Under the pieces are notes generated by a model. The model ran no database searches and had not been told where the DNA came from. It saw only the letters and a list, made by a program, of their open reading frames with translations. 64,000 nucleotides of DNA from Rhodobacterales bacterium (GTDB taxonomy: Bacteria > Pseudomonadota > Alphaproteobacteria > Rhodobacterales > Rhodobacteraceae). The position numbers were made by a program, and so were the translations under genes. The stretch spans positions 3,719 through 67,718 of the forward strand of contig JBBRVJ010000001.1 of assembly GCA_038246975.1 (NCBI GenBank). Reading direction: 5' to 3'. Shown here one piece after another: positions 4,345-41,694 of this stretch; within the stretch, counting starts at the first letter, position 1, and each line of letters begins with the position of its first letter.

Positions 4345-5400
4345 TTATTCCAGCGGACCCATCGGGGTCTCGGCTTCGACCATCGCTTGGGTCGCAGCCA
4401 GTTCCGGGTCCGATACCAGACCATAAGCGGCCAACGGGCCATCCGGACCGGCCATCTCGTCCGACACGAAGAACGTGATGTATTCTTTCAGGCCGGGGAT
4501 CACGCCGATGTGGGCCTTCTTGACGTAGAAGAACAGCGGGCGCGACACCGGGTATTCAGCCGAGGCGATCGATTCAGCCGAAGGAACGACGCCGCCCATG
4601 GTGGCGACGCGCAGCTTGTCGGTGTTGTTCTGGTAGAACGACAGACCGAACACGCCGATTGCCGACTTGTCGGCGTCGATGCGGGCCAGAGTCTCGGTGT
4701 AGTCGCCGTCGATGTCGACCGACTTGCCGTCGGTGCGCAGTTCCATGCAGGCCTTGTCGGCGGCGGATGCCTTGGCCTTGTCGTCAGCGCCTTCGGCCAC
4801 AGCGGCGAACAGGGCATGTGCGCCCGTTTCCTTGCAACCAGCGATGATCACCTTGGTGTCGAACACTTCACGGGTACCGTGCTTGGTGCCGGGGATGAAC
4901 ATCAGGATCGGTTGAGCCGGCAGGGCGGCGTCAACTTCGTTCCACGCGGCGTTTGCGTTTGCAACCAAAGCGCCATCCTTGGCGACCTGAGCGGCCAGTG
5001 CGCCATAGATGTGTGCCGGAGTGTATGCGAATTCCGGACCGTTCACGTCCGACGCAAACACGATGCCGTCATAGCCAAAGCGGACTTCCATCACCTCGGC
5101 CACACCGTTGGTGGCGCACAGTTCGATGTCCGACTTGGAGATGCGCGAGGACGAGTTGGCGATGTCGACGGTGTTTTCACCGACGCCTTCGCACAACTTC
5201 TTGCGACCGGCGCCCGAACCGCCGCCTTCAACGACCGGCGACGGGAAGTCGAAGTTTTCACCGAAAGCTTCGGCAACGATGGTCGAATAGGGCAGAACGG
5301 TGGACGAACCGGTGACCTGAACCTGGTCGCGCGCATGGCCGACGCCTGCCGACATGGCGACGATGGCCAGCACGGATGCGCTGATTTTCACGGATTTCAT
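4345..5400 (-). CDS. pstS: Phosphate ABC transporter substrate-binding protein PstS
   Basis: 351 aa with signal peptide MKSVKISASVLAIVAMSAGVGHA and a PstS-family body (TGSSTVLPY...). First gene of pstSCAB-phoU. Confidence 0.9.
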   Translation of the reverse strand: MKSVKISASVLAIVAMSAGVGHARDQVQVTGSSTVLPYSTIVAEAFGENFDFPSPVVEGGGSGAGRKKLCEGVGENTVDIANSSSRISKSDIELCATNGVAEVMEVRFGYDGIVFASDVNGPEFAYTPAHIYGALAAQVAKDGALVANANAAWNEVDAALPAQPILMFIPGTKHGTREVFDTKVIIAGCKETGAHALFAAVAEGADDKAKASAADKACMELRTDGKSVDIDGDYTETLARIDADKSAIGVFGLSFYQNNTDKLRVATMGGVVPSAESIASAEYPVSRPLFFYVKKAHIGVIPGLKEYITFFVSDEMAGPDGPLAAYGLVSDPELAATQAMVEAETPMGPLE

Positions 5401-5462
5401 GGATCTCTCCTGAAGAGGTTTGGGCCAAACGACTCAGCCTGCGACTTTCCTAGTGGCGATGA

Positions 5463-5501
5463 ATGTCAGGTTTGTCTCATTTTTGTAACAGTATCATGAC
5501 A
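5463..5501 (-). promoter_or_regulatory. Two tandem Pho boxes (four hexamer direct repeats at exact 11-bp spacing) upstream of pstS
   Basis: The minus strand reads TGTCATgatacTGTTACaaaaaTGAGACaaaccTGACAT. Hexamers begin every 11 bp (plus-strand positions 5496, 5485, 5474, 5463). The proximal repeat lies about 63 bp upstream of the pstS ATG. It resembles the PhoB consensus CTGTCAT-A(A/T)A(T/A)-CTGTCA(C/T). Confidence 0.6.
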
Positions 5502-5633
5502 TAGACAACCGGTGGGTTTGTTGTGTCACAAAGGTGCCGCGACGGGGATGGCCTGCACTCCATGCCGACGAAGAAAACGCCCAGACGTCCATTCCAAGCG
5601 CCCCCTCCTCCGCTTTGGGGGGGGGGAGCCTCG

Positions 5634-17625: not shown

Positions 17626-18177
17626 TTACAGTTTTGACAGCTTTCGCTGCATTTCGGCCAGTTGCTTCTTGATATCGGCCAGTTCTTCGGCGGCGGGATC
17701 GGCGGTTTCCTCCTTGGGGGCTGCGGCGGACCAGCCCGGCATCCCCACCATCATGGTTTTCAGAAATGCCTCTTGCTGTTTGCGCATCGCCTCGAACCCC
17801 GGGACGGCGGCCAGCGGGTTCGGGATCGCAGTCAGGTTTTCGACCATCTTGGCCTGACCTTCACGCAGCATGTCAAAACTCGCGGTCAGAAATTGCGGCA
17901 TCACCGCCTGCATGTTGGTGGCATAGGAGCGCACGAGGTCAGTCAGAACCGTGGTAGGCAACACGGTGTGGCCCTTGCTTTCGTGTTCGGCCACGATCTG
18001 CAACAGATACTGCCGCGTCAGGTCATCGCCCGACTTTAGGTCGACGATCTGCACTTCGCGCCCCGACCGGATGAACCCCGCAATATCCTCGATCGTCACA
18101 TAGTCCGAGGTTTCGGTGTTATACAGACGGCGGCTGGCATATCGCTTGATCAGCAGCGGCTTGGCAGTATCGGCCAT
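17626..18177 (-). CDS. phaR: Polyhydroxyalkanoate synthesis repressor PhaR
   Basis: MADTAKPLLIKRYASRRLYNTETSDYVTIEDIAGFIRSGREVQIVDLKSGDDLTRQYLLQI is canonical PhaR. The ATG at 18177 has a GGAGGGG SD. Confidence 0.9.
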   Translation of the reverse strand: MADTAKPLLIKRYASRRLYNTETSDYVTIEDIAGFIRSGREVQIVDLKSGDDLTRQYLLQIVAEHESKGHTVLPTTVLTDLVRSYATNMQAVMPQFLTASFDMLREGQAKMVENLTAIPNPLAAVPGFEAMRKQQEAFLKTMMVGMPGWSAAAPKEETADPAAEELADIKKQLAEMQRKLSKL

Positions 18178-18196
18178 CCCGGCCCCTCCCATCATG

Positions 18197-18909: not shown

Positions 18910-20703
18910 TCAGAAACCTGGGTCAGCCGTCACATAACGGCCGGGGGCCGGGGTGGGGTCGGCAAGTGCGGAATCATCGGGCTGTCGCGCGGCAATCTGG
19001 GACCCGGACCGCGCCGCAAGCCAGTCTGCCCAGCGCGGCCACCAGCTTGCCTTGTGAAACTCTGCCACCGCTTTCCATTCCTCGGGCGTGGTCAGGGCAG
19101 TCGTGCTGGTATAATGGCCGTACTTGCCTTTGGCGGGTGGATTGACGATCCCCGCGATATGCCCGGACTGCGCGAGGATGAAGGTCTTGTCGCCCGATCC
19201 CATCTGCCGGACGCCGTTGAAACTGGCTTTCCACGGCGCGATGTGGTCGGTTTCGCAGGCAATCGCACAGACCGGCAGGGTGATGTCGGCCAGCGACGCC
19301 GTCTGACCCATAACCGGAAAAGTTCCTTTGGCAAAGCCGTCCTGCTGGCACAACCCGCGCAGATATTCGACCGCCATCCGGCCCGGCAGGTTGGTGCCGT
19401 CACCATTCCAATACAGCAGATCAAACGCGGGCGGCGCCTCGCCCAGCATGTAGCTGCGAATGGCGGGTTGGTAGATCAGGTCGTTGGACCGCAGAAAACT
19501 GAAGGTCCGCGACATGAAGGTTTTCGCCATGACGCCGTCCACCGCCACCTGCCGTTCGATCCCGTCGACAAAGTCGTTGTCAAGGAACACCCCCACTTCA
19601 CCCGAGTCCGAAAAATCGGTCATGGTGGTAAAGAAGGTGGCCGAAGCGACCGAAGTGTCACCCGCACGCTGCAAGTGCGAAAGCGTCAGACCCAAAGTTG
19701 TACCGGCAATGCAATAACCCACGACGTTGATCTGCGGCTGCGCCGTGGCGCGCCGCACCTCGGCCATCGCACGCAGAAAACCGTCGCGAATATAGTTGTC
19801 CATCCCGATCTGGGCATAGCTCGCATCCGGGTTGACCCACGAGACGACAAACAGGGTGAACCCCTGGTCGACAATCCACTTGATCAGACTGTTTTCCGGT
19901 TTCAGGTCCAGCACGTAGAACTTGTTGATCCAGGGCGGAAAGATCAGAAGGGGCAGAGTGTGCACCGTTTCGGTGGTCGGCGCATACTGGATCAGTTCAA
20001 AAAGAGAATTGCGATAGACCACCTGCCCCGGCGTAGTGGCAAGGTTTCGGCCGACCTGAAACGCAGATGGGTCGGCCAGCGTCACCGTCAATTCGCCCGC
20101 ATGCGCCTCGACGTCGCGCACCAGGTTCTCCAGCCCCTGCACCAGACTTTCGCCATCGGTCGCCACGGCCTTTTCCAGCGCGTCGGGGTTGGTCGCCAGA
20201 AAGTTGGTCGGCGCGAACATGTCGACGATCTGTCTGGTAAAATACTCGACCCGCTTGCGTTCGGCCGGGTCCAGCGTGTCAAGGTCGGTCAGGGCGGTCG
20301 AGACCGCCTCGGCGTTCAACTGGTATTGCTGCTTGAGGAAGTTGAACATCGGATGCGTGTCCCACAGCGGATTGGCGAATCGCCTGTCCTTGGGGCCGGG
20401 GTCGGCGGGGGCCTTGAACTCGCCGTGCAACAGGGGTTGCTGCGCTGCAACGTAATGGGTCAGCGTCTTGCCCCAGAAGCCGATCTGCTGTTCCAGAATC
20501 CGCGCGGGATTCTGCATCATTTCGGTCATATAGGCCGCCGTCGCCTTCAGATAAACCTCCTGGTTGGGGGCCGCCAGCGCCGAATCGGCGGGTTTGCGGG
20601 CGGCAAAGGCCCGGATCAGGCGGTCCGACAACTCTTCCATCCGGGCGATGTTGGCCTGCAGGATCAAAGCACGGGCCTTTGCCTGATTCTCTTTGGTTGT
20701 CAT
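18910..20703 (-). CDS. phaC: Class I poly(R)-hydroxyalkanoate synthase PhaC
   Basis: 597 aa with lipase-like box GYCIAG, typical PhaC N- and C-domains. Confidence 0.95.
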   Translation of the reverse strand: MTTKENQAKARALILQANIARMEELSDRLIRAFAARKPADSALAAPNQEVYLKATAAYMTEMMQNPARILEQQIGFWGKTLTHYVAAQQPLLHGEFKAPADPGPKDRRFANPLWDTHPMFNFLKQQYQLNAEAVSTALTDLDTLDPAERKRVEYFTRQIVDMFAPTNFLATNPDALEKAVATDGESLVQGLENLVRDVEAHAGELTVTLADPSAFQVGRNLATTPGQVVYRNSLFELIQYAPTTETVHTLPLLIFPPWINKFYVLDLKPENSLIKWIVDQGFTLFVVSWVNPDASYAQIGMDNYIRDGFLRAMAEVRRATAQPQINVVGYCIAGTTLGLTLSHLQRAGDTSVASATFFTTMTDFSDSGEVGVFLDNDFVDGIERQVAVDGVMAKTFMSRTFSFLRSNDLIYQPAIRSYMLGEAPPAFDLLYWNGDGTNLPGRMAVEYLRGLCQQDGFAKGTFPVMGQTASLADITLPVCAIACETDHIAPWKASFNGVRQMGSGDKTFILAQSGHIAGIVNPPAKGKYGHYTSTTALTTPEEWKAVAEFHKASWWPRWADWLAARSGSQIAARQPDDSALADPTPAPGRYVTADPGF

Positions 20704-20725
20704 GGTCGCGATACATCCCTATCCT

Positions 20726-20741
20726 TGCTGCAAGTGCAGCA
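20726..20741. promoter_or_regulatory. Perfect palindrome TGCTGCA-ag-TGCAGCA in the phaC/phaZ divergent promoter
   Basis: 7-bp perfect arms with the same TGCTGC/GCAGCA arms as the phaP-promoter sites, but with CTGC-N4-GCAG spacing. Confidence 0.35.
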
Positions 20742-20806
20742 TTGTGACGCCTGTTCCGGGGGCACGTCCCGCACGAGCCGCACGCCCAACCGGGCCGGGA
20801 GACACG

Positions 20807-22105
20807 ATGAAGTATATGTTGACCTACGACCTGATGGAAAGCATGCGCAACACCAATGCGCTGATGGGCGCTGCAGCGCGCACGATGGCATCCTATCCGG
20901 CCTTTGCGCTGTCGCTGAACCCGATGCTGCCGCTGATCGCTGCCTGGGGCTCTGTAACGGAGCGCAGCTTTGAACGGATGGTGGCGAAACCGGACTGGGG
21001 CATCCGGTCAATCGTCGGGCCAGACGGGCAGGACCATCTGGTCGACGTGCAGACCGTGGTCAGCAAACCGTTCGGCAGCCTGATCCGCTTTTTTGTCCGC
21101 CGCCGCCCGCCGACCGGGCGCACCGTGCTGCTGGTGGCCCCGATGTCGGGTCATTATGCCACGCTGTTGCGGTCGACGGTGTCGTCCCTGCTGCCCGACT
21201 GCGATGTCTATGTGACCGACTGGCACAACGCGCGCGACATTCCGGTGTCGGTGGGCAAGTTCGATATCGAGGATTACACGCTGTATCTGGTCGATTTCAT
21301 GCGGCACCTTGGCCCGGAAACCCATGTGATCGCCGTCTGCCAGCCTGCCCCGCTGGCACTTGCCGCGACTGCTTATCTGGCGGCAGAGGACCCCAAGGCC
21401 CAGCCGTGCAGTCTGACGCTGATCGGCGGACCGGTCGACCCCGATGCGGCGGCGACCGATGTGACCGACTTCGGCAGCCGCATCACGATGGGCCAGTTGG
21501 AACAGATCGCCGTGCAGCGCGTCGGGTTCAAGTACAAGGGGGTCGGGCGTCTGGTCTATCCGGGTCTGTTGCAGTTGCAGTCCTTCATCTCGATGAACGC
21601 CGAACGCCATTCCAAGGCGTTTTCCGAACAGATCCTGCGCGCCGCGCGGGGCGAGGCGTCGGATCACGATGCGCACAACCGGTTTTATGATGAATATCTT
21701 GCGGTGATGGACATGACGGCGGAGTTTTATCTGTCGACCGTCGAGCGCATCTTCAAGAACGGCGAAATTGCGAAGAACAGGTTCGTGGTGGGCGGCAAGC
21801 AGGTGGACATCGGGGCGATCACCGATGTGTCCGTGATGACGGTCGAAGGGGCCGAGGATGACATCTCTGCCCCTGGCCAATGCGTAGCGGCGCTTGCCCT
21901 GCTGTCCGGCCTTCCGGAAGCCAAGAAAGCCCATCATCTGGAACCGGGGGCGGGCCACTATGGCATCTTTGCCGGCAAAAGCTGGCGGTTGAACATCCGG
22001 CCGCTGGTGCTGGGGTTCATCGACCGGGCGTCGGGCGAGGGCAGGACGGCGAAGAAGCCGCCGGGCACGGCCAATGGCAAGATCAGCCTCGCCTCATCGC
22101 AGTAG
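20807..22105 (+). CDS. phaZ: Intracellular PHB depolymerase PhaZ
   Basis: MKYMLTYDLMESMRNTNALMGAAARTM...; PHB-depolymerase family sequence of about 430 aa, divergent from phaC. GGGAGA SD before the ATG at 20807. Confidence 0.85.
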   Translation: MKYMLTYDLMESMRNTNALMGAAARTMASYPAFALSLNPMLPLIAAWGSVTERSFERMVAKPDWGIRSIVGPDGQDHLVDVQTVVSKPFGSLIRFFVRRRPPTGRTVLLVAPMSGHYATLLRSTVSSLLPDCDVYVTDWHNARDIPVSVGKFDIEDYTLYLVDFMRHLGPETHVIAVCQPAPLALAATAYLAAEDPKAQPCSLTLIGGPVDPDAAATDVTDFGSRITMGQLEQIAVQRVGFKYKGVGRLVYPGLLQLQSFISMNAERHSKAFSEQILRAARGEASDHDAHNRFYDEYLAVMDMTAEFYLSTVERIFKNGEIAKNRFVVGGKQVDIGAITDVSVMTVEGAEDDISAPGQCVAALALLSGLPEAKKAHHLEPGAGHYGIFAGKSWRLNIRPLVLGFIDRASGEGRTAKKPPGTANGKISLASSQ

Positions 22106-22154: not shown

Positions 22155-22865
22155 TTAGCGCAAGAGCATCGGCCCGTTCAGGAAAGCGTCAAGCGCGGCG
22201 GTTACCGCCTCGGGTTGCTCCAATGACGGCAGATGGCCTGCGTCGGGGATGGTCTGCATCTTGCCGAACGGCATCAGCCCCGCGGTAAATTCCTGCCTTC
22301 GCAACGGCACCAGCGTGTCCAGCGCCCCTGCCAGGATCAGCGCGGGGATTTTCACCTTGCGCATGGTTTTTTGCTGATCCGGTCTGCGCTGCAAGGCGCG
22401 CGATTGGCGCAGGAACACGCCCTCGCCCAGACCCAGCGCCATGTCGCGCACCAAGGCCAGAACGTCCTCGCGCCACGGGCTGCAGGCCAAAGCGGTGGCG
22501 GGGATTTCTTCGCGCATCGCCTCGGCCAGTCGCCCCGACCGCGCGGCCACGATCCGCGCTTCACGCGCTGCGGCCGCCTGTGGTGGTTCGGCCAGCGGGT
22601 CGGTCGCCATCAGAACCACCCGCGTCACCCGGTCCGGCGCGCGGCGCACCACGTCCAGCGCGACCTCACCGCCCAAGCCATGGCCGATCAGCGCGAACTT
22701 GGCCGGGGCCGAGGCCAGCACGAACGCGCTCAACGCCTCGACCGTGTCGGCTTGGGTCACCAAGCTGACCTGCATCGCCCGCGCCGCCCCCAAAGCCACG
22801 ATCTGCGGCAGGAACAGGCGCGCATCGGCCATCAGACCGGGGATCAGGACCAGCGGTTCGTGCAT
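22155..22865 (-). CDS. Alpha/beta-hydrolase-fold protein with Gly at the nucleophile position (GHGLGG)
   Basis: 236 aa. The fold motifs are present (LIPGLMAD..., DAGHLPSLE), but the elbow reads LIGHGLGGEVAL instead of G-x-S-x-G. Confidence 0.8.
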   Translation of the reverse strand: MHEPLVLIPGLMADARLFLPQIVALGAARAMQVSLVTQADTVEALSAFVLASAPAKFALIGHGLGGEVALDVVRRAPDRVTRVVLMATDPLAEPPQAAAAREARIVAARSGRLAEAMREEIPATALACSPWREDVLALVRDMALGLGEGVFLRQSRALQRRPDQQKTMRKVKIPALILAGALDTLVPLRRQEFTAGLMPFGKMQTIPDAGHLPSLEQPEAVTAALDAFLNGPMLLR

Positions 22866-23846
22866 CTAAAGGCCAATCGCCCAGTCCAGAATCAGCGCCA
22901 CCACAGGCTCGGTCTGACCCGGCGACAGGATATCGCCTGCAATCACATGGGAGTATGCATCATCCCCCGCCGTCATCTCGCGCAGCGCCTCGGTCGTGGG
23001 GCCGCCCCAGGCCTTGGCGACCGGAGAAATCGCTGCAGGATCAACCACCTGATCCGCCAGCGCATAGATCAACAGCGCGGGCATCCTGGCCACGGAATAG
23101 TCCAGCCCCCGCGCATGGGCGGCCGTTGCGGCCAGCGGGAACAGCGCCGTGGTCGGATAAGACGTCGTCCAGTATTTCGCCTGTTCGGCATTGGCGGGCG
23201 CAAAGCTGCGGGTCGCACCCGCCACAACCGGGGCCCACCACCGCGCCAAGGGCAAGTCCAGCAGGAACGCCGCCGGGCTGTTCAGCGCAAAGTTGGGGCT
23301 GATCATCACTACCCCGGCCAAGTCCTTGGACAGTACCGGGTCCGTCGCCGCAATCGCCGCCAGTGTAGCCCCGGTCGAGGTAGAGATGATCAGCACCCGC
23401 TCGCCGATCCGCCGCCCCACCGCCATCGCCTCGGCCACATCCTCGATCCAGTCACCCGCCACGGGTTCAGCCATCGCGGCACTTCCCCGGCCGTGCCCCG
23501 CAAGCCGGGTGAAGAACAGGTTCGCGCCCAACACCTTGGCGACCTCGTCCGGCACCGGGCGAATTTCTTCGGACGTCGCCGAAAAGCCGTGCAGGTAAAC
23601 CACCGCCAGCGGGGTCTTTGCCCCTTTGGCTCCGGCCCAGATCACCCGCTTGGCAACCCCCGGCACGATATCGGGATAAGCCGCTTCGCGCGCGGCAAGC
23701 CACGCATCCACATCCGCCCCGACCGATGCGTCGTCGAACGCAATCGCCCGGTCCACCGGTTCGCGCGGCGCGAACAGCCAGACGGCAAGGCCCACCCCGA
23801 CCAGCGCCAACAGAACCCGCCCGACCCACTTGCCCGCAGCCCGCAT
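22866..23846 (-). CDS. Membrane-anchored alpha/beta hydrolase (lysophospholipase-like)
   Basis: MRAAGKWVGRVLLALVGVGLAVWLF TM anchor; VYLHGFSATSEE; elbow ISTSTGA. Its stop abuts the next gene's ATG, and its own ATG overlaps the upstream stop (TGATG). Confidence 0.75.
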   Translation of the reverse strand: MRAAGKWVGRVLLALVGVGLAVWLFAPREPVDRAIAFDDASVGADVDAWLAAREAAYPDIVPGVAKRVIWAGAKGAKTPLAVVYLHGFSATSEEIRPVPDEVAKVLGANLFFTRLAGHGRGSAAMAEPVAGDWIEDVAEAMAVGRRIGERVLIISTSTGATLAAIAATDPVLSKDLAGVVMISPNFALNSPAAFLLDLPLARWWAPVVAGATRSFAPANAEQAKYWTTSYPTTALFPLAATAAHARGLDYSVARMPALLIYALADQVVDPAAISPVAKAWGGPTTEALREMTAGDDAYSHVIAGDILSPGQTEPVVALILDWAIGL

Positions 23847-24589
23847 CACACGCCCCCCGAAACCTGTTCCACCGCCTGCCCGATCATCGCCAGACACGCC
23901 GCACTTGAAAAGCGGTGATCCGCGCCCTTGACCAGTGTCAGCCGAATATCCGACCCTGTCGCATGGTCGAGCAGCCGCAACGCCCGTTCCATCGGCACAT
24001 CCACATCTGCCGTGCCCTGCAACATCCTGACCGGAAACGGCAAGGCCAGCGGCGCGCGCAGCACCAGATGCCGCCGCCCATCTTCAATCAGTCGCCGGGT
24101 GATCCGGTAGGGCGCGCCATAATCAGAGGGCAGATCGACAAACCCGCCCGCCAGCGTCGACTTCTGCGCGTTGGAAAACCCGGCCCACATGCTGTCTTCG
24201 GTGAAATCGGGTGCAGCAGCTATCGTCACCAGCCCCGCCACCCGGTCCGGCATGGCGCGGGCCAGCAGCAACGCGATCCAGCCGCCCATGGATGACCCGA
24301 CCAGAACCTGCGGCCCGGTGCACAACGCCAGCACCGCCAAAGCGTCCTGAACCCAGTCCCCAATGCACCCGTCCTCGAACGCGCCGCCCGACCCGCCATG
24401 CCCCGAATAGTCGAACCGCAAGAACGCGCGGCCCTGCGCCTGCGCCCAGTCGGCCAGAAACATCGCCTTGGTGCCGCCCATGTCGGATTTGAACCCGCCC
24501 AGAAACATCACCCCAGGACCCGCGCCTGCGGTCTGATGATAGGCAATCCGGCGGCCCTGCGGCGTGGTCAAATGATGCGGCTTGGCCAT
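23846..24589 (-). CDS. Alpha/beta hydrolase
   Basis: Only the C-terminal 247 aa of track ORF 23846..26503 is credible: MAKPHHLTTPQGRRIAYHQTAG...VGSSMGGWIALLLA...GADHRF. The remainder of that ORF is antisense to thrS. Confidence 0.8.
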   Translation of the reverse strand: MAKPHHLTTPQGRRIAYHQTAGAGPGVMFLGGFKSDMGGTKAMFLADWAQAQGRAFLRFDYSGHGGSGGAFEDGCIGDWVQDALAVLALCTGPQVLVGSSMGGWIALLLARAMPDRVAGLVTIAAAPDFTEDSMWAGFSNAQKSTLAGGFVDLPSDYGAPYRITRRLIEDGRRHLVLRAPLALPFPVRMLQGTADVDVPMERALRLLDHATGSDIRLTLVKGADHRFSSAACLAMIGQAVEQVSGGV

Positions 24590-24718
24590 GATGCCCCCCC
24601 CTTTGGCCCCCGCTATACCGAGCCCATGTTGACAAGACCATGGCCGCAACGCAGAACTCCGCCCACATAACCCGCAACCGGGCGTTTCGTAGACGCCAAA
24701 CCGACGAGGATGCCTTTG

Positions 24719-26680
24719 ATGGCCCAGATCACTCTGACATTTCCCGATGGCAACCAGCGCAGCTATGCGGCGGGCACGACGTCGGCCGAGGTTGCCGCCT
24801 CCATCGCCCCCGGTCTGGCGAAAAAGGCCATCTCCGCCAGCATAAACGGCGCGCATTACGACCTTGCATGGCCGATCCCCACCGATGCGAAAATCGCCAT
24901 CAACACGCTGGCCGATGACGCCGCAGCCTTGGAACTGATCCGCCACGACTGCGCCCACATCATGGCCCGCGCCGTGCAGGATATCTGGCCGGATGCACGC
25001 GTCACCATCGGCCCGGTACGCGACTACGGCTGGTTCTATGACTTCGACCGGGCCGAGCCGTTCACCCCCGAAGACCTTGGCCAGATCGAGGCGCGGATGA
25101 AGCAGATCATCAACGCCCGTGATCCGGTGCGCACCGAGGTTTGGGACCGCGCCCGCGCCATCGCCTATTACGAACAGCGCGGCGAGCCGTACAAGCTGGA
25201 ACTCATCGCCCGCATTCCCGAGGATCAGGATTTGCGAATGTACTGGCACGGCCCTTGGCAGGATCTGTGCCGGGGCCCGCATCTGCAACACACGGGCCAA
25301 GTTCCCGCAGATGGCTTCAAGCTGACGTCGATTGCCGGGGCCTATTGGCTTGGGGATTCCACGCGCCCCATGCTGCAACGCATCTACGGCATCGCCTTCA
25401 GAAACCGTGACGACCTCAAGGCGCACATGACCATGCTGGAGGAGGCCGCCAAACGCGACCATCGCAAGCTTGGCCGCGAAATGGACCTGTTCCACATGCA
25501 GGAAGAGGCACCGGGGCAGATTTTCTGGCACCCCAACGGCTGGAACATCTATGTGGCGCTGCAAGACTACATGCGCCGCCGACAGCGCGCCGATGGCTAT
25601 GTCGAGGTGAACACGCCGCAAGTGGTGAACCGCAAGCTGTGGGAGGCGTCGGGCCACTGGGACAACTATCGCGAACACATGTTCCTCGTCGAAGTCGACG
25701 AAGAAGGCGCGCGGGAAAAGGTGATCAACGCGCTCAAGCCGATGAACTGCCCTTGCCACGTGCAGATCTTCAATGTCGGGCTGAAATCCTACCGCGATCT
25801 GCCGATCCGCATGGCCGAATTCGGCTCTTGCGCGCGTTATGAACCCTCGGGGGCGTTGCACGGCATCATGCGGGTGCGCGGGTTCACCCAGGACGACGCG
25901 CATATCTTCTGCACGTTGGAACAGGTGGAAGCAGAGTCTAAAAAATTCATCGAGTTTCTGGCGCGGGTCTATGCCGACCTCGGGTTCGACAAATGGCGCG
26001 TGAAACTGTCGACGCGACCGGAAAAGCGCGTGGGCAGCGACGAGATGTGGGACCGGATGGAAGCAGCCCTTGCCAACGCCTGCAGCGCCGCCGGGCACGC
26101 CTTTACCATCTTCCCCGGCGAAGGTGCGTTTTACGCGCCCAAGCTGGAATTCGTACTGACCGACGCGATCGGGCGCGACTGGCAATGCGGCACGCTGCAA
26201 CTGGACCCCAACCTGCCGGAACGGCTGGGCGCGCAGTTTGTCGGCGAAGATGGCGCACGTCATACGCCTTTCATGCTGCACCGCGCCTGTCTGGGCAGTT
26301 TCGAGCGGTTCATCGGCATCCTGATCGAAAGCTTTGCGGGCAAACTGCCGTTCTGGATCGCCCCGCGCCAGATCGTCGTCGCCTCCATCGTGTCGGACGC
26401 CGACCCCTTTGTGCGCGAAGTCGTCGAAACCCTGCGCGCGCGCGGACTGCGGGCAGAGGCGGATGTTCGCAACGAAAAGATCAACTACAAGGTCCGCGAA
26501 CACTCGGTCGGCAAGGTTCCGGTGATCCTTGCCATCGGCATGAAGGAGGTCGCAGATCGGACAGTGTCGATCCGCCGTTTGGGTGAAACAATAACCCAGA
26601 CGATTTCGTTACAGGCCATGGTCGACGAATTGGTGGCCGAAGGCATTCCGCCCGACCTGCGCGGCCCGGCAACGCTTTGA
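24719..26680 (+). CDS. thrS: Threonine--tRNA ligase
   Basis: TGS domain at the N-terminus ([16 protein letters not shown]), a class II core and an anticodon-binding domain. The ATG at 24719 has a GAGGA SD at correct spacing. Confidence 0.95.
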
Positions 26681-26876
26681 TTGCAGAACCAAAAATGCTG
26701 GGCCCTCCGGCGCGATTGAAATTTTCGTGATCGACATGTCGAGGAGCATGATTGTTTCACCCGGTCACAGCCCTGTGGGCCTCTGCCGCCAGCGTTGAGC
26801 GATGACAGAAGCCTGCGCTACATTCCCATCATCGCAACAAAAGCGATCCAGACACCCCAACAAAGAGGAAATCCAC

Positions 26877-27164
26877 ATGTCCATCCATCTGAAATCCTTC
26901 GCCGTCGCCGGCGCTTTCGCAGCGGCCTTGTCGGCTGTCGCCGTCCCTGCTTCGGCCGCCGGAAACGAAAAGTGCTTTGGCGTGGCGCTGGCCGGCAAGA
27001 ACGACTGTGCTGCCGGTGCAGGCACCACCTGCGCTGGCACCTCGAAGGTCGATTATCAGGGTGACGCCTGGAAACTGGTCCCGGCCGGTACCTGCGTCAC
27101 GATGGAAAAGGACGGCGGCCGTACGGGCTCGCTGACCGCGCTCGACCGTGATCTCAAGTCCTGA
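26877..27164 (+). CDS. bufA: DUF2282-family secreted Cys-containing peptide (bufferin-type RiPP precursor, BufA-like)
   Basis: 95 aa. Signal peptide [27 protein letters not shown], then [46 protein letters not shown], with 4 Cys in the DUF2282 pattern. AGAGGA SD. Confidence 0.8.
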
Positions 27165-27221
27165 TCTAAACTGCCCCTCCGGCCCCGGGCCGGGGGGGCA
27201 CCTCCCCAAAGGAGCCGCACG

Positions 27222-28070
27222 ATGTTCGACGCCGCCCGCCTCACCCTGCCCAACCTCCCCGGCGTCGGCTACAAACCGCAACATTTTTCGGCAATCCTTG
27301 CCAACGCGGCCCCGGTCGGCTGGCTCGAGATTCACGCCGAAAACTACATGGGCGGCGGCGGGCGGCCTTTGGCCCAACTGCGCCATCTGGCCGAGCGGTT
27401 TGCGATCTCGGTGCATGGCGTGGGTCTGTCGATCGGCGGCGAGGGGCCGCTGGACCAAGACCACCTGAACCGTCTGAAAACCCTGTGCGACTGGCTGCAA
27501 CCGGCCAGCTTTTCCGAACATCTGGCATGGTCCACCCATGACGGCGCGTTTCTGAACGACCTGCTGCCGCTGCCTTACACCGCCGACACACTGACTACCG
27601 TCTGCGATCACATCGACCATGTGCAGACTACGCTGGGCCGCCGGATGCTGCTGGAAAACCCGTCCAGCTATCTGGCCTTTGCCGAGACCGAGATGGACGA
27701 AGTGACGTTCCTGCGCGCCATTACCCGCCGCACGGGCTGCGGTCTGCTGCTGGACGTGAACAACGTCTATGTCTCGGCGATCAATCAGCAAACTGACGCC
27801 AACGCTTATATCGACGCCTTCCCGCTGGACGCTGTGGGAGAGGTCCACCTTGGCGGCCATGACGAGGATGTCGGCGACCATGGGCTGCCCCTGCTGATCG
27901 ATAGCCATGGTGCCGCCATCGTCAATCCGGTCTGGGCGCTTTATGTCCACACCATCGCACGGGGCGGGCCGAAACCGACGCTGATCGAATGGGACAACGA
28001 CGTGCCCGACTGGCCGGTTCTGGCAGCGGAAGCCGCCCGCGCTGCGGCCATATTGGAACAGGTCGCATGA
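27222..28070 (+). CDS. bufB: DUF692 / MbnB-like multinuclear non-haem iron oxidase (MNIO), BufB-like
   Basis: 282 aa; [13 protein letters not shown]...[14 protein letters not shown]...[11 protein letters not shown]...EHLAWS is typical DUF692. AAGGAG SD. Confidence 0.85.
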
Positions 28071-28795
28071 CCCAGTCCAGCTTTGCCGCAGCCCTGCTGA
28101 ACCCCGATGCCGCGACGCCGGCGAACCTGATCGACCCGCAAGGCCGCCCCGCGCCCAAGCGCTTCTCGGTCTACCGCAACAACGTGACCTCTGGCCTGAT
28201 CCGCGCGCTGGAGGCTGGGTTTCCTGTGATCCGCAAACTGGTGGGGCCGGAATTTTTTGCCGCACTGGCCCTGACCCACCTGCGCGCCCATCCGCCACGC
28301 AGCCGGATTATGATGCTGTATGGCGATGACTTCCCCGCGTTTCTGGCGGGGTTTCCGCCCGTGGCCCACCTGCCCTATCTGGCCGATGTGGCGCGTCTGG
28401 AACTGGCGATCCGCCACAGCTATCACAGCGCCGACGCGGCCCCCATCGACCCGGCGGCGCTGTCGGTGCCCGAGGACCGCTTGCTGAACAGCCGCCTGTT
28501 TCTGGCCCCGTCGCTGCGGCTGATCCGCTCGCCTTGGCCGATCCACGCGATCTGGCAGGCCAACACGAACAATGGCCCCGCCCCACAGCCCGCCGCCGAG
28601 GATGTGGTGATCCTGCGCGCCGGATTCGAACCCGCCCCCCACCTGCTGCCTCCCGGTGGGGCTGCGTTTCTGCAAGCGATCCTTGCGGGCCGGACGCTGG
28701 CCGAAGCATTGGCCGCAAGCCCTGACAGGTTCGATCTGACGGCTGTGTTGGCGCTGCTGTTGTCCACCCAATCACTGACGGGAATAACCAAATGA
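28067..28795 (+). CDS. bufC: DUF2063-family MNIO partner protein, BufC-like
   Basis: The ATG overlaps the bufB stop (ATGA). [33 protein letters not shown] is the characteristic DUF2063 N-terminal motif. 242 aa. Confidence 0.8.
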
Positions 28796-29319
28796 CCGCC
28801 TACCTCCGCCTGACCGACTGGCTCGCCGCACAGGACACCATCCTTCCCACCCTCGCCCGCCTGATCTTTGCTGCCGTGCTGGCAGGGTATTTCTGGGCGT
28901 CTGCTCTGACCAAATTCGACGGCTTCCCCTTCACCCTGTCTACCGGCGCCTTTGCGCAGATTTATCCCAAACAGTTCGAGGCGGTAGGCTATGACGCCAG
29001 CCAACTGGGCCTGATACCCTATCTGGTAACGCTGGCCGGGGCCTATGCCGAAATCATCCTGCCGCTGCTGATCGTGCTGGGCCTGTTGACCCGGCTTGCG
29101 GCGCTGGGGATGATCGGCTTTGTGGTCGTGCAAAGTCTGACCGACATCTGGGGTCACATGGCAGGACCGGACACCATCGGCGCATGGTTCGACCGCGCGC
29201 CCGATGCCCTGATCCTGGATCAACGGGCGTTGTGGGTGCTGTTGCTGACCATCCTCGTGGTCAAGGGCGCAGGCCCGCTGTCGGCGGACCGGGGCTTGCG
29301 TCAGTGGGTATCGGGCTGA
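28792..29319 (+). CDS. DoxX-family integral membrane protein
   Basis: The ATG overlaps the bufC stop (ATGA). 175 aa with about 4 TM helices, DoxX-like. Fourth gene of the buf-type operon. Confidence 0.8.
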   Translation: MTAYLRLTDWLAAQDTILPTLARLIFAAVLAGYFWASALTKFDGFPFTLSTGAFAQIYPKQFEAVGYDASQLGLIPYLVTLAGAYAEIILPLLIVLGLLTRLAALGMIGFVVVQSLTDIWGHMAGPDTIGAWFDRAPDALILDQRALWVLLLTILVVKGAGPLSADRGLRQWVSG

Positions 29320-29687
29320 CGCGCCATCAGCGCCAGCACACCGCCCAGTCCGCACATCGCAATCGGGAACATGGTGAAAACGCCAAAGCCGAAGGCAAAC
29401 AGAATCGCCCCCGCCGCCGCCAGCATCAACACGCCCGCCGCCACATTCTGCGACCGCGCCATCGCCGCCCCGGCAATCGCGAGCAGCGGCGCCAGAAAAC
29501 TTGCCAGTTTTATCAGCGCCGGATTCTGCACTTGCTGGGCAAAATCACCGATTGCGCCATTCTTGGCGATGAACTCGGTGTAGCCATAGCCGAAAAAACC
29601 GATGATCATGGCCCAAAGACCGCCAATCAGACCCAAAGTCAGTGCAGCATTCCGCATGGCCACCCAATCCCGCTTGATTTTCAGCAT
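29301..29687 (-). CDS. Hypothetical small membrane protein
   Basis: Gly/Ala/Phe-rich with about 4 predicted TM segments. Start uncertain (ATG 29687 or 29657). The 3' end overlaps the doxX 3' end by 19 nt (convergent). Confidence 0.5.
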   Translation of the reverse strand: MLKIKRDWVAMRNAALTLGLIGGLWAMIIGFFGYGYTEFIAKNGAIGDFAQQVQNPALIKLASFLAPLLAIAGAAMARSQNVAAGVLMLAAAGAILFAFGFGVFTMFPIAMCGLGGVLALMARQPDTH

Positions 29688-29817
29688 AGCTTTGGCATGA
29701 TTTGCCGCGTGATGACAGGCTTTCCGATTTTGATGCCCGACAGAGGCCACGCGGATACGCCTGAATGCACTGGCCACGGCAATCGCGCCGTGGGGAAGTC
29801 GAGTAAGGAGAGACGGC

Positions 29818-30024
29818 ATGCCCACCGGCACCGTAAAGTGGTTTAACAGCACCAAAGGCTATGGGTTCATTGCACCCGACAATGGCGGCAAAGACATATT
29901 CGTACATATCTCGGCCGTGGAACGCGCCGGGCTCAAGGGCCTGAATGACAACCAGAAGATCGGATTCGAGTTGCAATCGGGCCGCGACGGCAAGGAATCT
30001 GCGGCGGATCTGCGCCTGCTTTAG
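29818..30024 (+). CDS. cspA: Cold-shock protein, CspA family
   Basis: MPTGTVKWFNSTKGYGFIAPDNGGKDIFVHISAV, with RNP1/RNP2 motifs. 68 aa. Confidence 0.95.
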   Translation: MPTGTVKWFNSTKGYGFIAPDNGGKDIFVHISAVERAGLKGLNDNQKIGFELQSGRDGKESAADLRLL

Positions 30025-30347
30025 GCGGTGACGGCGGCTTCGACGTCTGCGTCCCAGCCCAGCCAGAAGCGCCCCTGTTCCTCGATCACCGGGCGCTTCA
30101 TCACGGTCGGCTGTGCGGCAATCTGCGCCTCGGGGTCCGAGACGCGCAAAAAGTCGCTGAACCCACGGTAGGTCGTCGATTGCTTGTTGATCAGGCGGTC
30201 GCCGAATTCGATCACCAGACGGTCGATTTCATCCGCTGAAAGGGGTTCGGCGCGCACGTCGCGGAAGGTCACAAACTTGCCCGCCCTTTCCAGCGCCTTG
30301 ATCGCCTTTTTCGTCGTGTCACAGGTCGAAATGCCGTAAACGATCAT
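30021..30347 (-). CDS. ArsC/Spx/MgsR-family protein (YffB-like)
   Basis: MIVYGISTCDTTKKAIKALERAGKFVTFRDV.... 108 aa. Confidence 0.8.
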   Translation of the reverse strand: MIVYGISTCDTTKKAIKALERAGKFVTFRDVRAEPLSADEIDRLVIEFGDRLINKQSTTYRGFSDFLRVSDPEAQIAAQPTVMKRPVIEEQGRFWLGWDADVEAAVTA

Positions 30348-41620: not shown

Positions 41621-41694
41621 TGGAGCGGGCGGCGGGAATCGAACCCGCGTCTTTAGCTTGGAAGGCTAAGGTCTTACCATTACACAACGCCCGC
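41621..41694 (-). tRNA. tRNA-Gly (anticodon UCC), CCA encoded
   Basis: The minus strand reads GCGGGCGTTGTGTAATGGTAAGACCTTAGCCTTCCAAGCTAAAGACGCGGGTTCGATTCCCGCCGCCCGCTCCA. Cloverleaf with 7-bp acceptor, anticodon loop CTTCCAA and T-loop TTCGATT. Very close to E. coli glyT by eye. Confidence 0.9.

Follow-up and report, generated by a model that had tools for sequence, protein, structure and literature searches.

What controls a bufferin operon that has no regulator gene beside it? The question is raised by four genes, bufABCD, at positions 26877-29319 of a 64,000-nucleotide stretch of a Rhodobacterales genome (GenBank assembly GCA_038246975.1, contig JBBRVJ010000001.1), hereafter called the window (64 kb). 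A preliminary description of this DNA had read the genes as a bufferin-type operon and had left their control and physiological trigger unexplained. The explanation that best accounts for the locus as a whole, and which is held here with good confidence, is that a Buf1-type bufABCD operon forms a core locus of the Rhodobacterales and is controlled by a housekeeping-type promoter, an upstream palindrome and hairpins.

All four predicted proteins exceeded the curated cut-offs in a Pfam scan (Table 1), and these profile matches confirmed the initial assignments to DUF2282, DUF692 (multinuclear non-haem iron oxidase, MNIO), DUF2063 and DoxX. BufB scored 375.7 bits against the NCBIfam equivalog NF050167, 'MNIO family bufferin maturase' (MNIO_BufB; cut-off 310), and fell under the cut-offs of the sister NCBIfam models HvfB (234.6 against 360), MbnB (59 against 325), ApyH and ChrH. 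In a PDB sequence search, the closest solved structure to BufB was 3BWW, a DUF692 protein (6e-42), and BufA and BufC were without matches; an exact-sequence look-up of the window BufB found none on record. The four same-strand genes are tightly coupled, with ATGA stop/start overlaps exactly where they had first been placed, at 28067-28070 (bufB/bufC) and 28792-28795 (bufC/bufD); on the sequence, bufC is translationally coupled to bufB, and bufD to bufC, via these overlaps. Direct reading of the sequence also gave an AAGAGGA ribosome-binding site 7 nt 5' of the bufA ATG. The four families, the NF050167 match and the Cys pattern described below all fit a bufferin cluster of the Buf1 type in every feature that can be tested by sequence, and the operon therefore belongs to the known bufferin family. 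By its gene content and order, the stretch 26877-29319 is, as had been proposed, a bufferin biosynthetic operon of canonical Buf1 type. The four-gene architecture given for this recently recognised class was likewise right, while the remark that such loci are usually annotated as DUF or hypothetical is outdated: an NCBI equivalog and BufA1 names exist, and among the more than 7,900 BufA homologues found, some carry the NCBI name 'BufA1 family periplasmic bufferin-type metallophore'.

A scan of a genome collection with BufB yielded more than 580 relatives, and comparisons were made with the best 80, all from Rhodobacterales/Paracoccaceae and 71-80% identical (loci are cited by L numbers). The window BufA has cysteines at residues 32, 43, 51 and 72, and this C-x10-C-x7-C-x20-C spacing was common to 77 of 78 BufA orthologues, with invariant columns EKC...C...C...GTC in the orthologue alignment (alignment A4). 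By inspection, residues 1-26 are a Sec-type signal peptide: the n-region (MSIHLK) is basic, some 14 hydrophobic residues follow, and A-S-A precedes residue 27. Every aligned orthologue has this layout. The remainder (residues 27-95) is a single CxxxC-free DUF2282 core. The PF10048 match, the Cys columns and the signal peptide thus agree with the earlier view of a 95-aa secreted peptide with four Cys in the DUF2282 pattern, and its length falls in the 80-120 aa range of DUF2282/BufA1 precursors.

Variant precursors were observed at several loci. In L010 (4951-5253), an orthologous precursor without the two central modifiable cysteines (...NDGGDDPAIAAGTS...) lies 747 nt from bufB; this bufA looks like a decaying or repurposed gene. 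Tandem bufferin precursors are occasional according to the literature, and tandem bufA genes were present 5' of the annotated bufA in L035 (~5128-5514) and L073 (~5228-5548) and also in L212 (3317-3912), the extra precursor gene of the pair ending ...LDRDLPA immediately before the main bufA. The bufA products of L027, L044, L048, L059 and L079 are 115-132 aa long and carry, after a normal BufA core, an acidic C-terminal extension of 20-35 residues that shares the motif LEA(D/E)GY..(L/I)(A/N)RDLPEG. In L087 (3289-4712), short unrelated open reading frames (ORFs) are called in the place of bufB and bufC with bufA and bufD intact, which could represent a disrupted maturase or an assembly error.

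The same four genes occur in the same order in Caulobacter vibrioides buf1ABCD (CCNA_03363-03366), the founding bufferin 1 cluster (PMC11626156), and this four-gene core, in which DoxX is the frequent fourth member, is the standard Buf1 cluster (PMC11626156, PMC12452194). In Caulobacter bufferin 1, BufB and BufC turn the two central Cys into 5-thiooxazoles and a disulfide joins the outer two; the peptide is exported by Sec and binds copper, and the DoxX protein is dispensable (PMC11626156). The window precursor resembles that of C. vibrioides in its Sec signal peptide and its four Cys, the central two 8 residues apart; the heterocycle neighbours of Caulobacter Buf1 are 8 residues apart with a Trp strand about 13 further (PMC11626156), and the window numbering fits. 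Homology to the Caulobacter system is what points to the chemistry and metal binding of the product of the window operon. Plasmid or chromid Buf1 operons of Paracoccus, Shinella and Rhizobium, Paracoccus belonging to the same order as the window, share the bufABCD core with BufB 60-65% identical. These are accessory-replicon copies and not the core thrS-linked copy: genes for an extracytoplasmic function (ECF) sigma factor and a DUF1109 (NrsF) protein adjoin them, a SigF-type promoter lies at -72 to -80, and some have tandem precursors or cupredoxin or cytochrome c neighbours. The gig (gold-induced genes) operons of Cupriavidus metallidurans and Legionella pneumophila have the same gene family set and are regarded as bufferin clusters (PMC11626156); they are described as metal-induced (gold, copper, cadmium) and are likened here by description, and the window is without sign of a metal-resistance island. 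HvfABC/oxazolin (Buf_EGKCG) and methanobactin MbnABC likewise employ an MNIO on ribosomal-peptide Cys to make copper-binding heterocycles, and the HvfC and HvfX models match the window BufC and BufD weakly. The window differs from those systems in that its precursor lacks EGKCG repeats and does not resemble MbnA, BufB is under the HvfB and MbnB cut-offs, and no MbnC is present.

To place the operon among its relatives, the neighbourhoods of the 80 loci were compared by tblastn with the window's proteins. The gene thrS lay upstream on the same strand in 75/80 loci and cspA downstream in 67/80; an ArsC-like gene was near the operon in 66/80 and the upstream hydrolase was found in 57/80. Near-identical and genus-level metagenome contigs kept the window gene order over 20 kb. 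The position between thrS and cspA, borne out in the window by coordinates and Pfam, is thus widely shared, and sigF-nrsF was found in only one of the 80 Rhodobacterales chromosomal loci (L015), inserted between thrS and bufA. The Rhodobacterales inherit the buf operon vertically as a core locus, at a fixed place between thrS and cspA and without adjacent sigF-nrsF. The lack of a visible regulator is not special to this genome: it is the normal state of a syntenic, order-wide locus. For the window itself, candidate ORFs of the whole 64 kb were picked by codon bias and scanned with Pfam; no ECF sigma factor, DUF1109/NrsF, MerR/CueR, CsoR, copper ATPase or multicopper oxidase was among them, an absence that is not exhaustive, as stretches where no ORF had been picked and small (CsoR-size) ORFs fell outside the scan. 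Furthermore, tblastn of the Paracoccus SigF/NrsF pair against the window gave no match. Within the scanned ORFs, the statement that no ECF sigma/anti-sigma pair, CsoR/CueR-type regulator or copper-efflux gene adjoins the operon therefore stands.

The 230 nt 5' of bufA were read in all loci and showed a repeated palindrome, CACR-N4-YGTG. The 17.9 kb of DNA upstream of bufA contained 76 copies, distributed over 61/78 loci; the other 888 kb of these loci had only 28, so that the palindrome is enriched 134-fold upstream of bufA. It was always 81-138 nt before the bufA ATG, was often in tandem, and whenever two copies were present they were exactly 15 bp apart. An ungapped position weight matrix alignment brought 57 loci, including the window, into one register and defined the module gT.ACa-N5-TcACG-N4-CGTGa-N2-CACGg-N4-CGTGA-n-TGGC-N2-gt.A-...-ggCTA, whose first, half-site-like element (GTTTCA in the window) reads GTTTCA or GTTACA in near relatives of the window. 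The module remains 85-135 nt from the bufA ATG even where 0.9-5 kb of other genes part thrS from bufA, and it therefore belongs to bufA and not to thrS. The R and Y positions of the palindrome arms vary independently, with A..C (common) and G..T combinations, which fits a protein-binding DNA site and not an RNA stem. In the window the proximal palindrome is degenerate (it is lost in the genus-level relatives L086-L088 too), and only the distal site, the predicted binding site of a transcription factor, is intact. Those relatives keep the distal half-sites (TCACA...YGTG) while the 4-5 central bases and the 17 nt to the -35 element have diverged, suggesting that the single distal site is still under selection. 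The palindromes abut the -35 element from upstream, as for activators.

Known operators were compared with the palindrome. The half-sites of the CRP/FNR operator are in the opposite orientation, the GG/GC spacing of sigma-54 promoters is not kept, and none of the LysR T-N11-A box, the Pho box or the PpsR, RegA, CueR/CsoR and SqrR motifs fits; the IscR and Irr boxes quoted for Rhodobacter did not match either. A metagenome-wide scan for the double palindrome returned 80 matches, none of them at a buf locus and 77 within long ORFs of GC-rich soil contigs; such matches are chance ones, and the scan was uninformative on a regulon or regulator. Between thrS and bufA, 5' of the module, there is also a separate, perfect 12-bp palindrome (TCGACATGTCGA, 26731-26742), which the near-identical contigs L081-L085 share unchanged and which was not seen in more distant relatives.

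Downstream of the palindrome, conservation and geometry point to a housekeeping-type bufA promoter, TTGAGC-N17-CTACAT. The -35 hexamer is kept as (A/G)TTGAG in L086-L088, and other loci have a weaker nTGGCn at the same position. A CTA/TTA triplet lies 52 nt from the distal palindrome in 36/57 anchored loci. The alphaproteobacterial housekeeping -10 element is GCTANAWC, which the conserved CTA resembles. The weak nTGGCn and intact proximal palindrome of other loci are compatible with an ancestral promoter that depended on an activator and that has become more self-sufficient in the window. Upstream of these elements, the thrS terminator of relatives (L087, L011, L039 and others) is comprised of an A-tract, a GC hairpin GCGCCGG...CCGGCGC and a T-tract. 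In the window (26681-26730) it is degenerate, with GCTGG...CCGGC, a displaced T-run and a fold z of -0.14, so that read-through into bufA may be higher here. The conserved palindrome, the candidate promoter, the two hairpins described below and the case against SigF leave less of the control unexplained than the preliminary description had supposed.

Two hairpins bracket bufA. The first, small and just 3' of the -10 element, would form the 5' end of the bufA transcript. Its stem differs across loci (ATCGC/GCGAT, GTCGC/GCGAC, GCCGC/GCGGC, TCACC/GGTGA, GGCAC/GTGCC), the nearest relatives having a G-U wobble variant. In a 43-sequence alignment 72% of cells were paired, compared with 14-47% when the partners were slid, and the covariation score was 0.286 against 0.206 ± 0.018 for shuffled alignments, none of 500 shuffles reaching it, although the relatedness of the sequences means that this control overstates significance. 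The named structure was counted in this way since RNAalifold on the 5' untranslated region alignment found no structure, MAFFT mis-registering the variable loops. Rfam gave nothing credible near bufA in searches of the window and the leader region. The second hairpin lies between bufA and bufB, and the 66-nt window segment that contains it folds at -33.3 kcal/mol. A hairpin with a stem of at least 9 bp occurred at the same place in 71/76 loci in unrelated sequences (median over loci 12 bp, -23 kcal/mol and a start about 12 nt after the bufA stop). A dG of -18 kcal/mol or below was reached by 66/76 intercistronic segments and by 17/379 length-matched coding controls. Only 19/76 of these hairpins have a T-rich tail, suggesting that most are not classical terminators. 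Searching the text of the bufferin paper (PMC11626156) gave no mention of such hairpins.

Table 1. Positions, strands and descriptions of the genes and predicted control elements of the buf locus (window coordinates).
Feature	Positions	Strand	Description
thrS	24710-26680	+	upstream flank, same strand as operon
GTTTCA	26754-26759	+	upstream half-site-like element, consensus gT.ACa; position fixed relative to palindromes (57 loci)
Distal operator-like palindrome	26765-26778		TCACAGCCCTGTGG; core CACAGCCCTGTG at 26766-26777; centre ~58 bp 5' of predicted transcription start
-35 hexamer (predicted)	26795-26800	+	TTGAGC, 17 nt 5' of CTACAT; putative assignment
-10 element (predicted)	26817-26824	+	GCTACATT; CTACAT at 26818-26823
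Small stem-loop	26831-26847	+	ATCGC-N7-GCGAT; predicted 5' end of bufA transcript, just 3' of -10
bufA	26877-27164	+	95-aa bufferin precursor; PF10048 (DUF2282/BufA1) 1e-24, 86.7 bits vs cut-off 22.4
Intercistronic GC-rich stem-loop bufA/bufB	27172-27200	+	13-bp stem, 3-nt loop, no T-tract
bufB	27222-28070	+	282 aa; MNIO (DUF692) bufferin maturase; PF05114 (MbnB_TglH_ChrH) 1.6e-105
bufC	28067-28795	+	242 aa; DUF2063/HvfC_N partner protein; PF09836 6e-27
bufD	28792-29319	+	175 aa; DoxX-family membrane protein; PF07681 5e-10, 40.3 bits vs cut-off 23.6
Convergent small membrane ORF	29301-29687	-	~128 aa, predicted multi-pass; overlaps bufD 3' end by 19 nt
cspA	29818-30024		downstream flank

According to the mechanism proposed, transcription would start about 47 nt 5' of bufA from TTGAGC-N17-CTACAT and would be modulated by a DNA-binding protein via CACR-N4-YGTG just upstream of the -35 element; where most relatives have two such sites 15 bp apart, the window has the distal one only, together with an improved -35. 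In the mRNA, the 5'-terminal hairpin and the very stable hairpin after the bufA stop would bracket the bufA segment. Most likely, the two hairpins stabilise the bufA message, attenuate read-through, or partly stop transcription or 3' decay. Such stabilisation or attenuation would leave the substrate peptide in excess over the three processing proteins. Precursor excess over maturation proteins is an arrangement known from other operons for ribosomally synthesised and post-translationally modified peptides. By analogy with Caulobacter, the cytoplasmic step would be the conversion of Cys43 and Cys51 of the 95-aa precursor to 5-thiooxazoles by BufB and BufC; export of the peptide through Sec would follow, with removal of the 26-residue signal peptide, and the outer Cys would form a disulfide. 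The product of about 69 residues would bind copper in the periplasm, with BufD (DoxX) as a putative accessory.

Several observations weigh against this explanation. A consensus sigma-70/terminator scan of 26400-30100 did not call the predicted hexamers, its sole promoter-like match being inside bufD. The window 12-mer alone is not significant (4 matches in this window vs 6.7 expected), so the case for it rests on the between-locus comparison, and with the proximal site degenerate the distal palindrome that survives may be a relic. As a third GTGA repeat is found immediately 3' of the -35 element, activator and repressor cannot be told apart. No regulator gene recurs next to the operon: what the insertions between thrS and bufA contain is mixed, with a sugar kinase, an epimerase and other genes, and sigF-nrsF in L015 alone. 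The 5' hairpin of the window has only a 5-bp stem (z = -1.5), and 19/200 shuffles fold as well. For the peptide, an AlphaFold2 model of BufA built with 32 orthologues had a mean predicted local distance difference test score of 43.7 and is uninformative.

The relic possibility leads to the alternative that survives best, namely that the operon is constitutive, expressed from the housekeeping promoter and by read-through from thrS, with the lone palindrome as a non-functional operator remnant. The proximal palindrome has been lost in the window and L086-L088 while the -35 improved from nTGGCn to TTGAGC, the thrS terminator is degenerate in the window and clear in relatives, and the locus is embedded among housekeeping genes. 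The distal half-sites are nevertheless kept in the window, L086, L087 and L088, although the centre and the 17-nt spacer were free to diverge, and constitutive expression is on balance unlikely, though it retains appreciable weight.

In Caulobacter, buf1 and buf2 are documented to be under SigF/NrsF control (PMC3511200, PMC11626156), and sigma/NrsF genes accompany many Buf1 clusters (PMC12452194). Caulobacter buf1 adjoins sigF-nrsF, is driven solely by the SigF promoter GTAACC-N16-CGAA and is induced by copper and other metals. Unlike Caulobacter, the window has no sigF-nrsF and no SigF promoter, and instead a predicted housekeeping-type promoter and palindrome at the fixed thrS-cspA site. A SigF-type sigma factor and NrsF might still control the operon from elsewhere in the genome, much as Caulobacter buf2 lies far from sigF; the trigger would then be copper or heavy-metal stress. 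The positive controls from Paracoccus, Shinella and Rhizobium (3/3) have GTAAC-N16/17-CG(A/T)(A/T) at -72 to -80 and are without the palindrome. A SigF-type motif was also found in 6/78 Rhodobacterales loci (L001, L005, L007, L009, L015, L046; chance expectation 0.19), and over the three controls and these six loci the motif spans -72 to -108. All six are at the same syntenic site, and five (L001, L005, L007, L009, L046) are thrS-linked with no sigF/nrsF within 6 kb, suggesting that remote control does occur in the order. In the window's 196-bp leader (26681-26876), GTAACC-N16-CGAA had no match, even with two mismatches or a relaxed pattern, and matches elsewhere in the window were at chance level only; the GTAAC-N16/17-CGWW so clear in the controls and the SigF-type loci is likewise absent there. 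Furthermore, the motif was present in 0/57 module-bearing loci, the group to which the window belongs, vs 6/21 module-poor ones. This mutual exclusion suggests that the same chromosomal site carries one of two alternative control modules. By ThrS identity, two SigF-type loci (L005 and L046) rank with the nearest relatives of the window, which suggests that the switches are recent. As a side observation, L001 and L007 also retain a single palindrome farther from bufA (-138 and -130), and both control types may thus coexist. With this leader, and with no sigF or nrsF found in the 64 kb, SigF control of the window operon appears unlikely, and the version with a remotely encoded sigma factor is distinctly improbable.

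Least probable of all, and carrying very little weight, is that the palindromes are RNA elements (a thrS terminator or 3' untranslated region structure, or a small RNA gene between thrS and bufA): each lies in the thrS-bufA spacer and could fold into a hairpin with a 4-5-bp stem and a 4-nt loop, and a T-run follows the first half-site in some relatives (L008, L011, L022), but the module stays with bufA across insertions after thrS, the arms are conserved and not covarying, with the non-pairing A..C common at R/Y, Rfam finds no RNA family at the palindromes, and the thrS terminator can be recognised as a hairpin of its own, farther 5'.

Next to the operon, the convergent small membrane ORF had no Pfam or NCBIfam match. 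Gene calls in near relatives make it 118-128 aa long, and a homologue adjoins the operon in 34/80 loci, lying 5' of bufA instead in L044, L059 and L079. It thus accompanies the operon in either of two positions, downstream of bufD or upstream of bufA; its membership of the bufferin system is uncertain. Beyond cspA, an ArsC-family gene and a DUF2177 gene lie on the opposite strand. The gene content of the window includes pstSCAB, epmA, efp, cydAB, metG, an aminotransferase and a LysR gene; phaR-phaC-phaZ, three alpha/beta hydrolases, thrS, the buf operon and cspA; sugar-isomerase-like and enolase-family genes, two GntR/FCD regulators, and fabA, fabB and fabI-like genes; and a tRNA, hydroxyproline-catabolism genes, pyrD, a helicase, methylmalonyl-CoA mutase and others. 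The polyhydroxybutyrate (PHB) cluster is comprised of phaR (17626-18195), phaC (18910-20703) and phaZ (20693-22105). Between it and thrS are the three consecutive alpha/beta-hydrolase genes (22155-24601, minus strand), a run kept in L086. The tRNA (41624-41694, minus strand, 62.7 bits) was the sole Rfam match in the window.

The gene cluster itself offers nothing new, being recognisable by public models, and knowledge of bufferin chemistry is unchanged. Modestly new are the core-locus status, an operator alternative to SigF promoters and the hairpins flanking the precursor gene. The Rhodobacterales are an abundant and ecologically dominant marine/freshwater order in which the buf operon is fixed and the promoter type turns over between close genera. 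The flanking hairpins provide a testable model of precursor vs enzyme levels, and the precise DNA and RNA elements can serve for mutation and as regulator bait; they also raise the question of a constitutive bufferin role in copper homeostasis. Tentatively, and with rather less than even confidence, it may be that the Rhodobacterales turned a bufferin stress-island module into a housekeeping locus under a transcription factor acting via the tandem palindrome, repeatedly swapped with SigF promoters, with hairpins setting the precursor:enzyme ratio. If true, the palindrome would offer a way to a new regulator that responds to metal or redox state, and Rhodobacterales bufferins may serve routine periplasmic copper handling (cuproenzyme supply or buffering), not only emergency detoxification.

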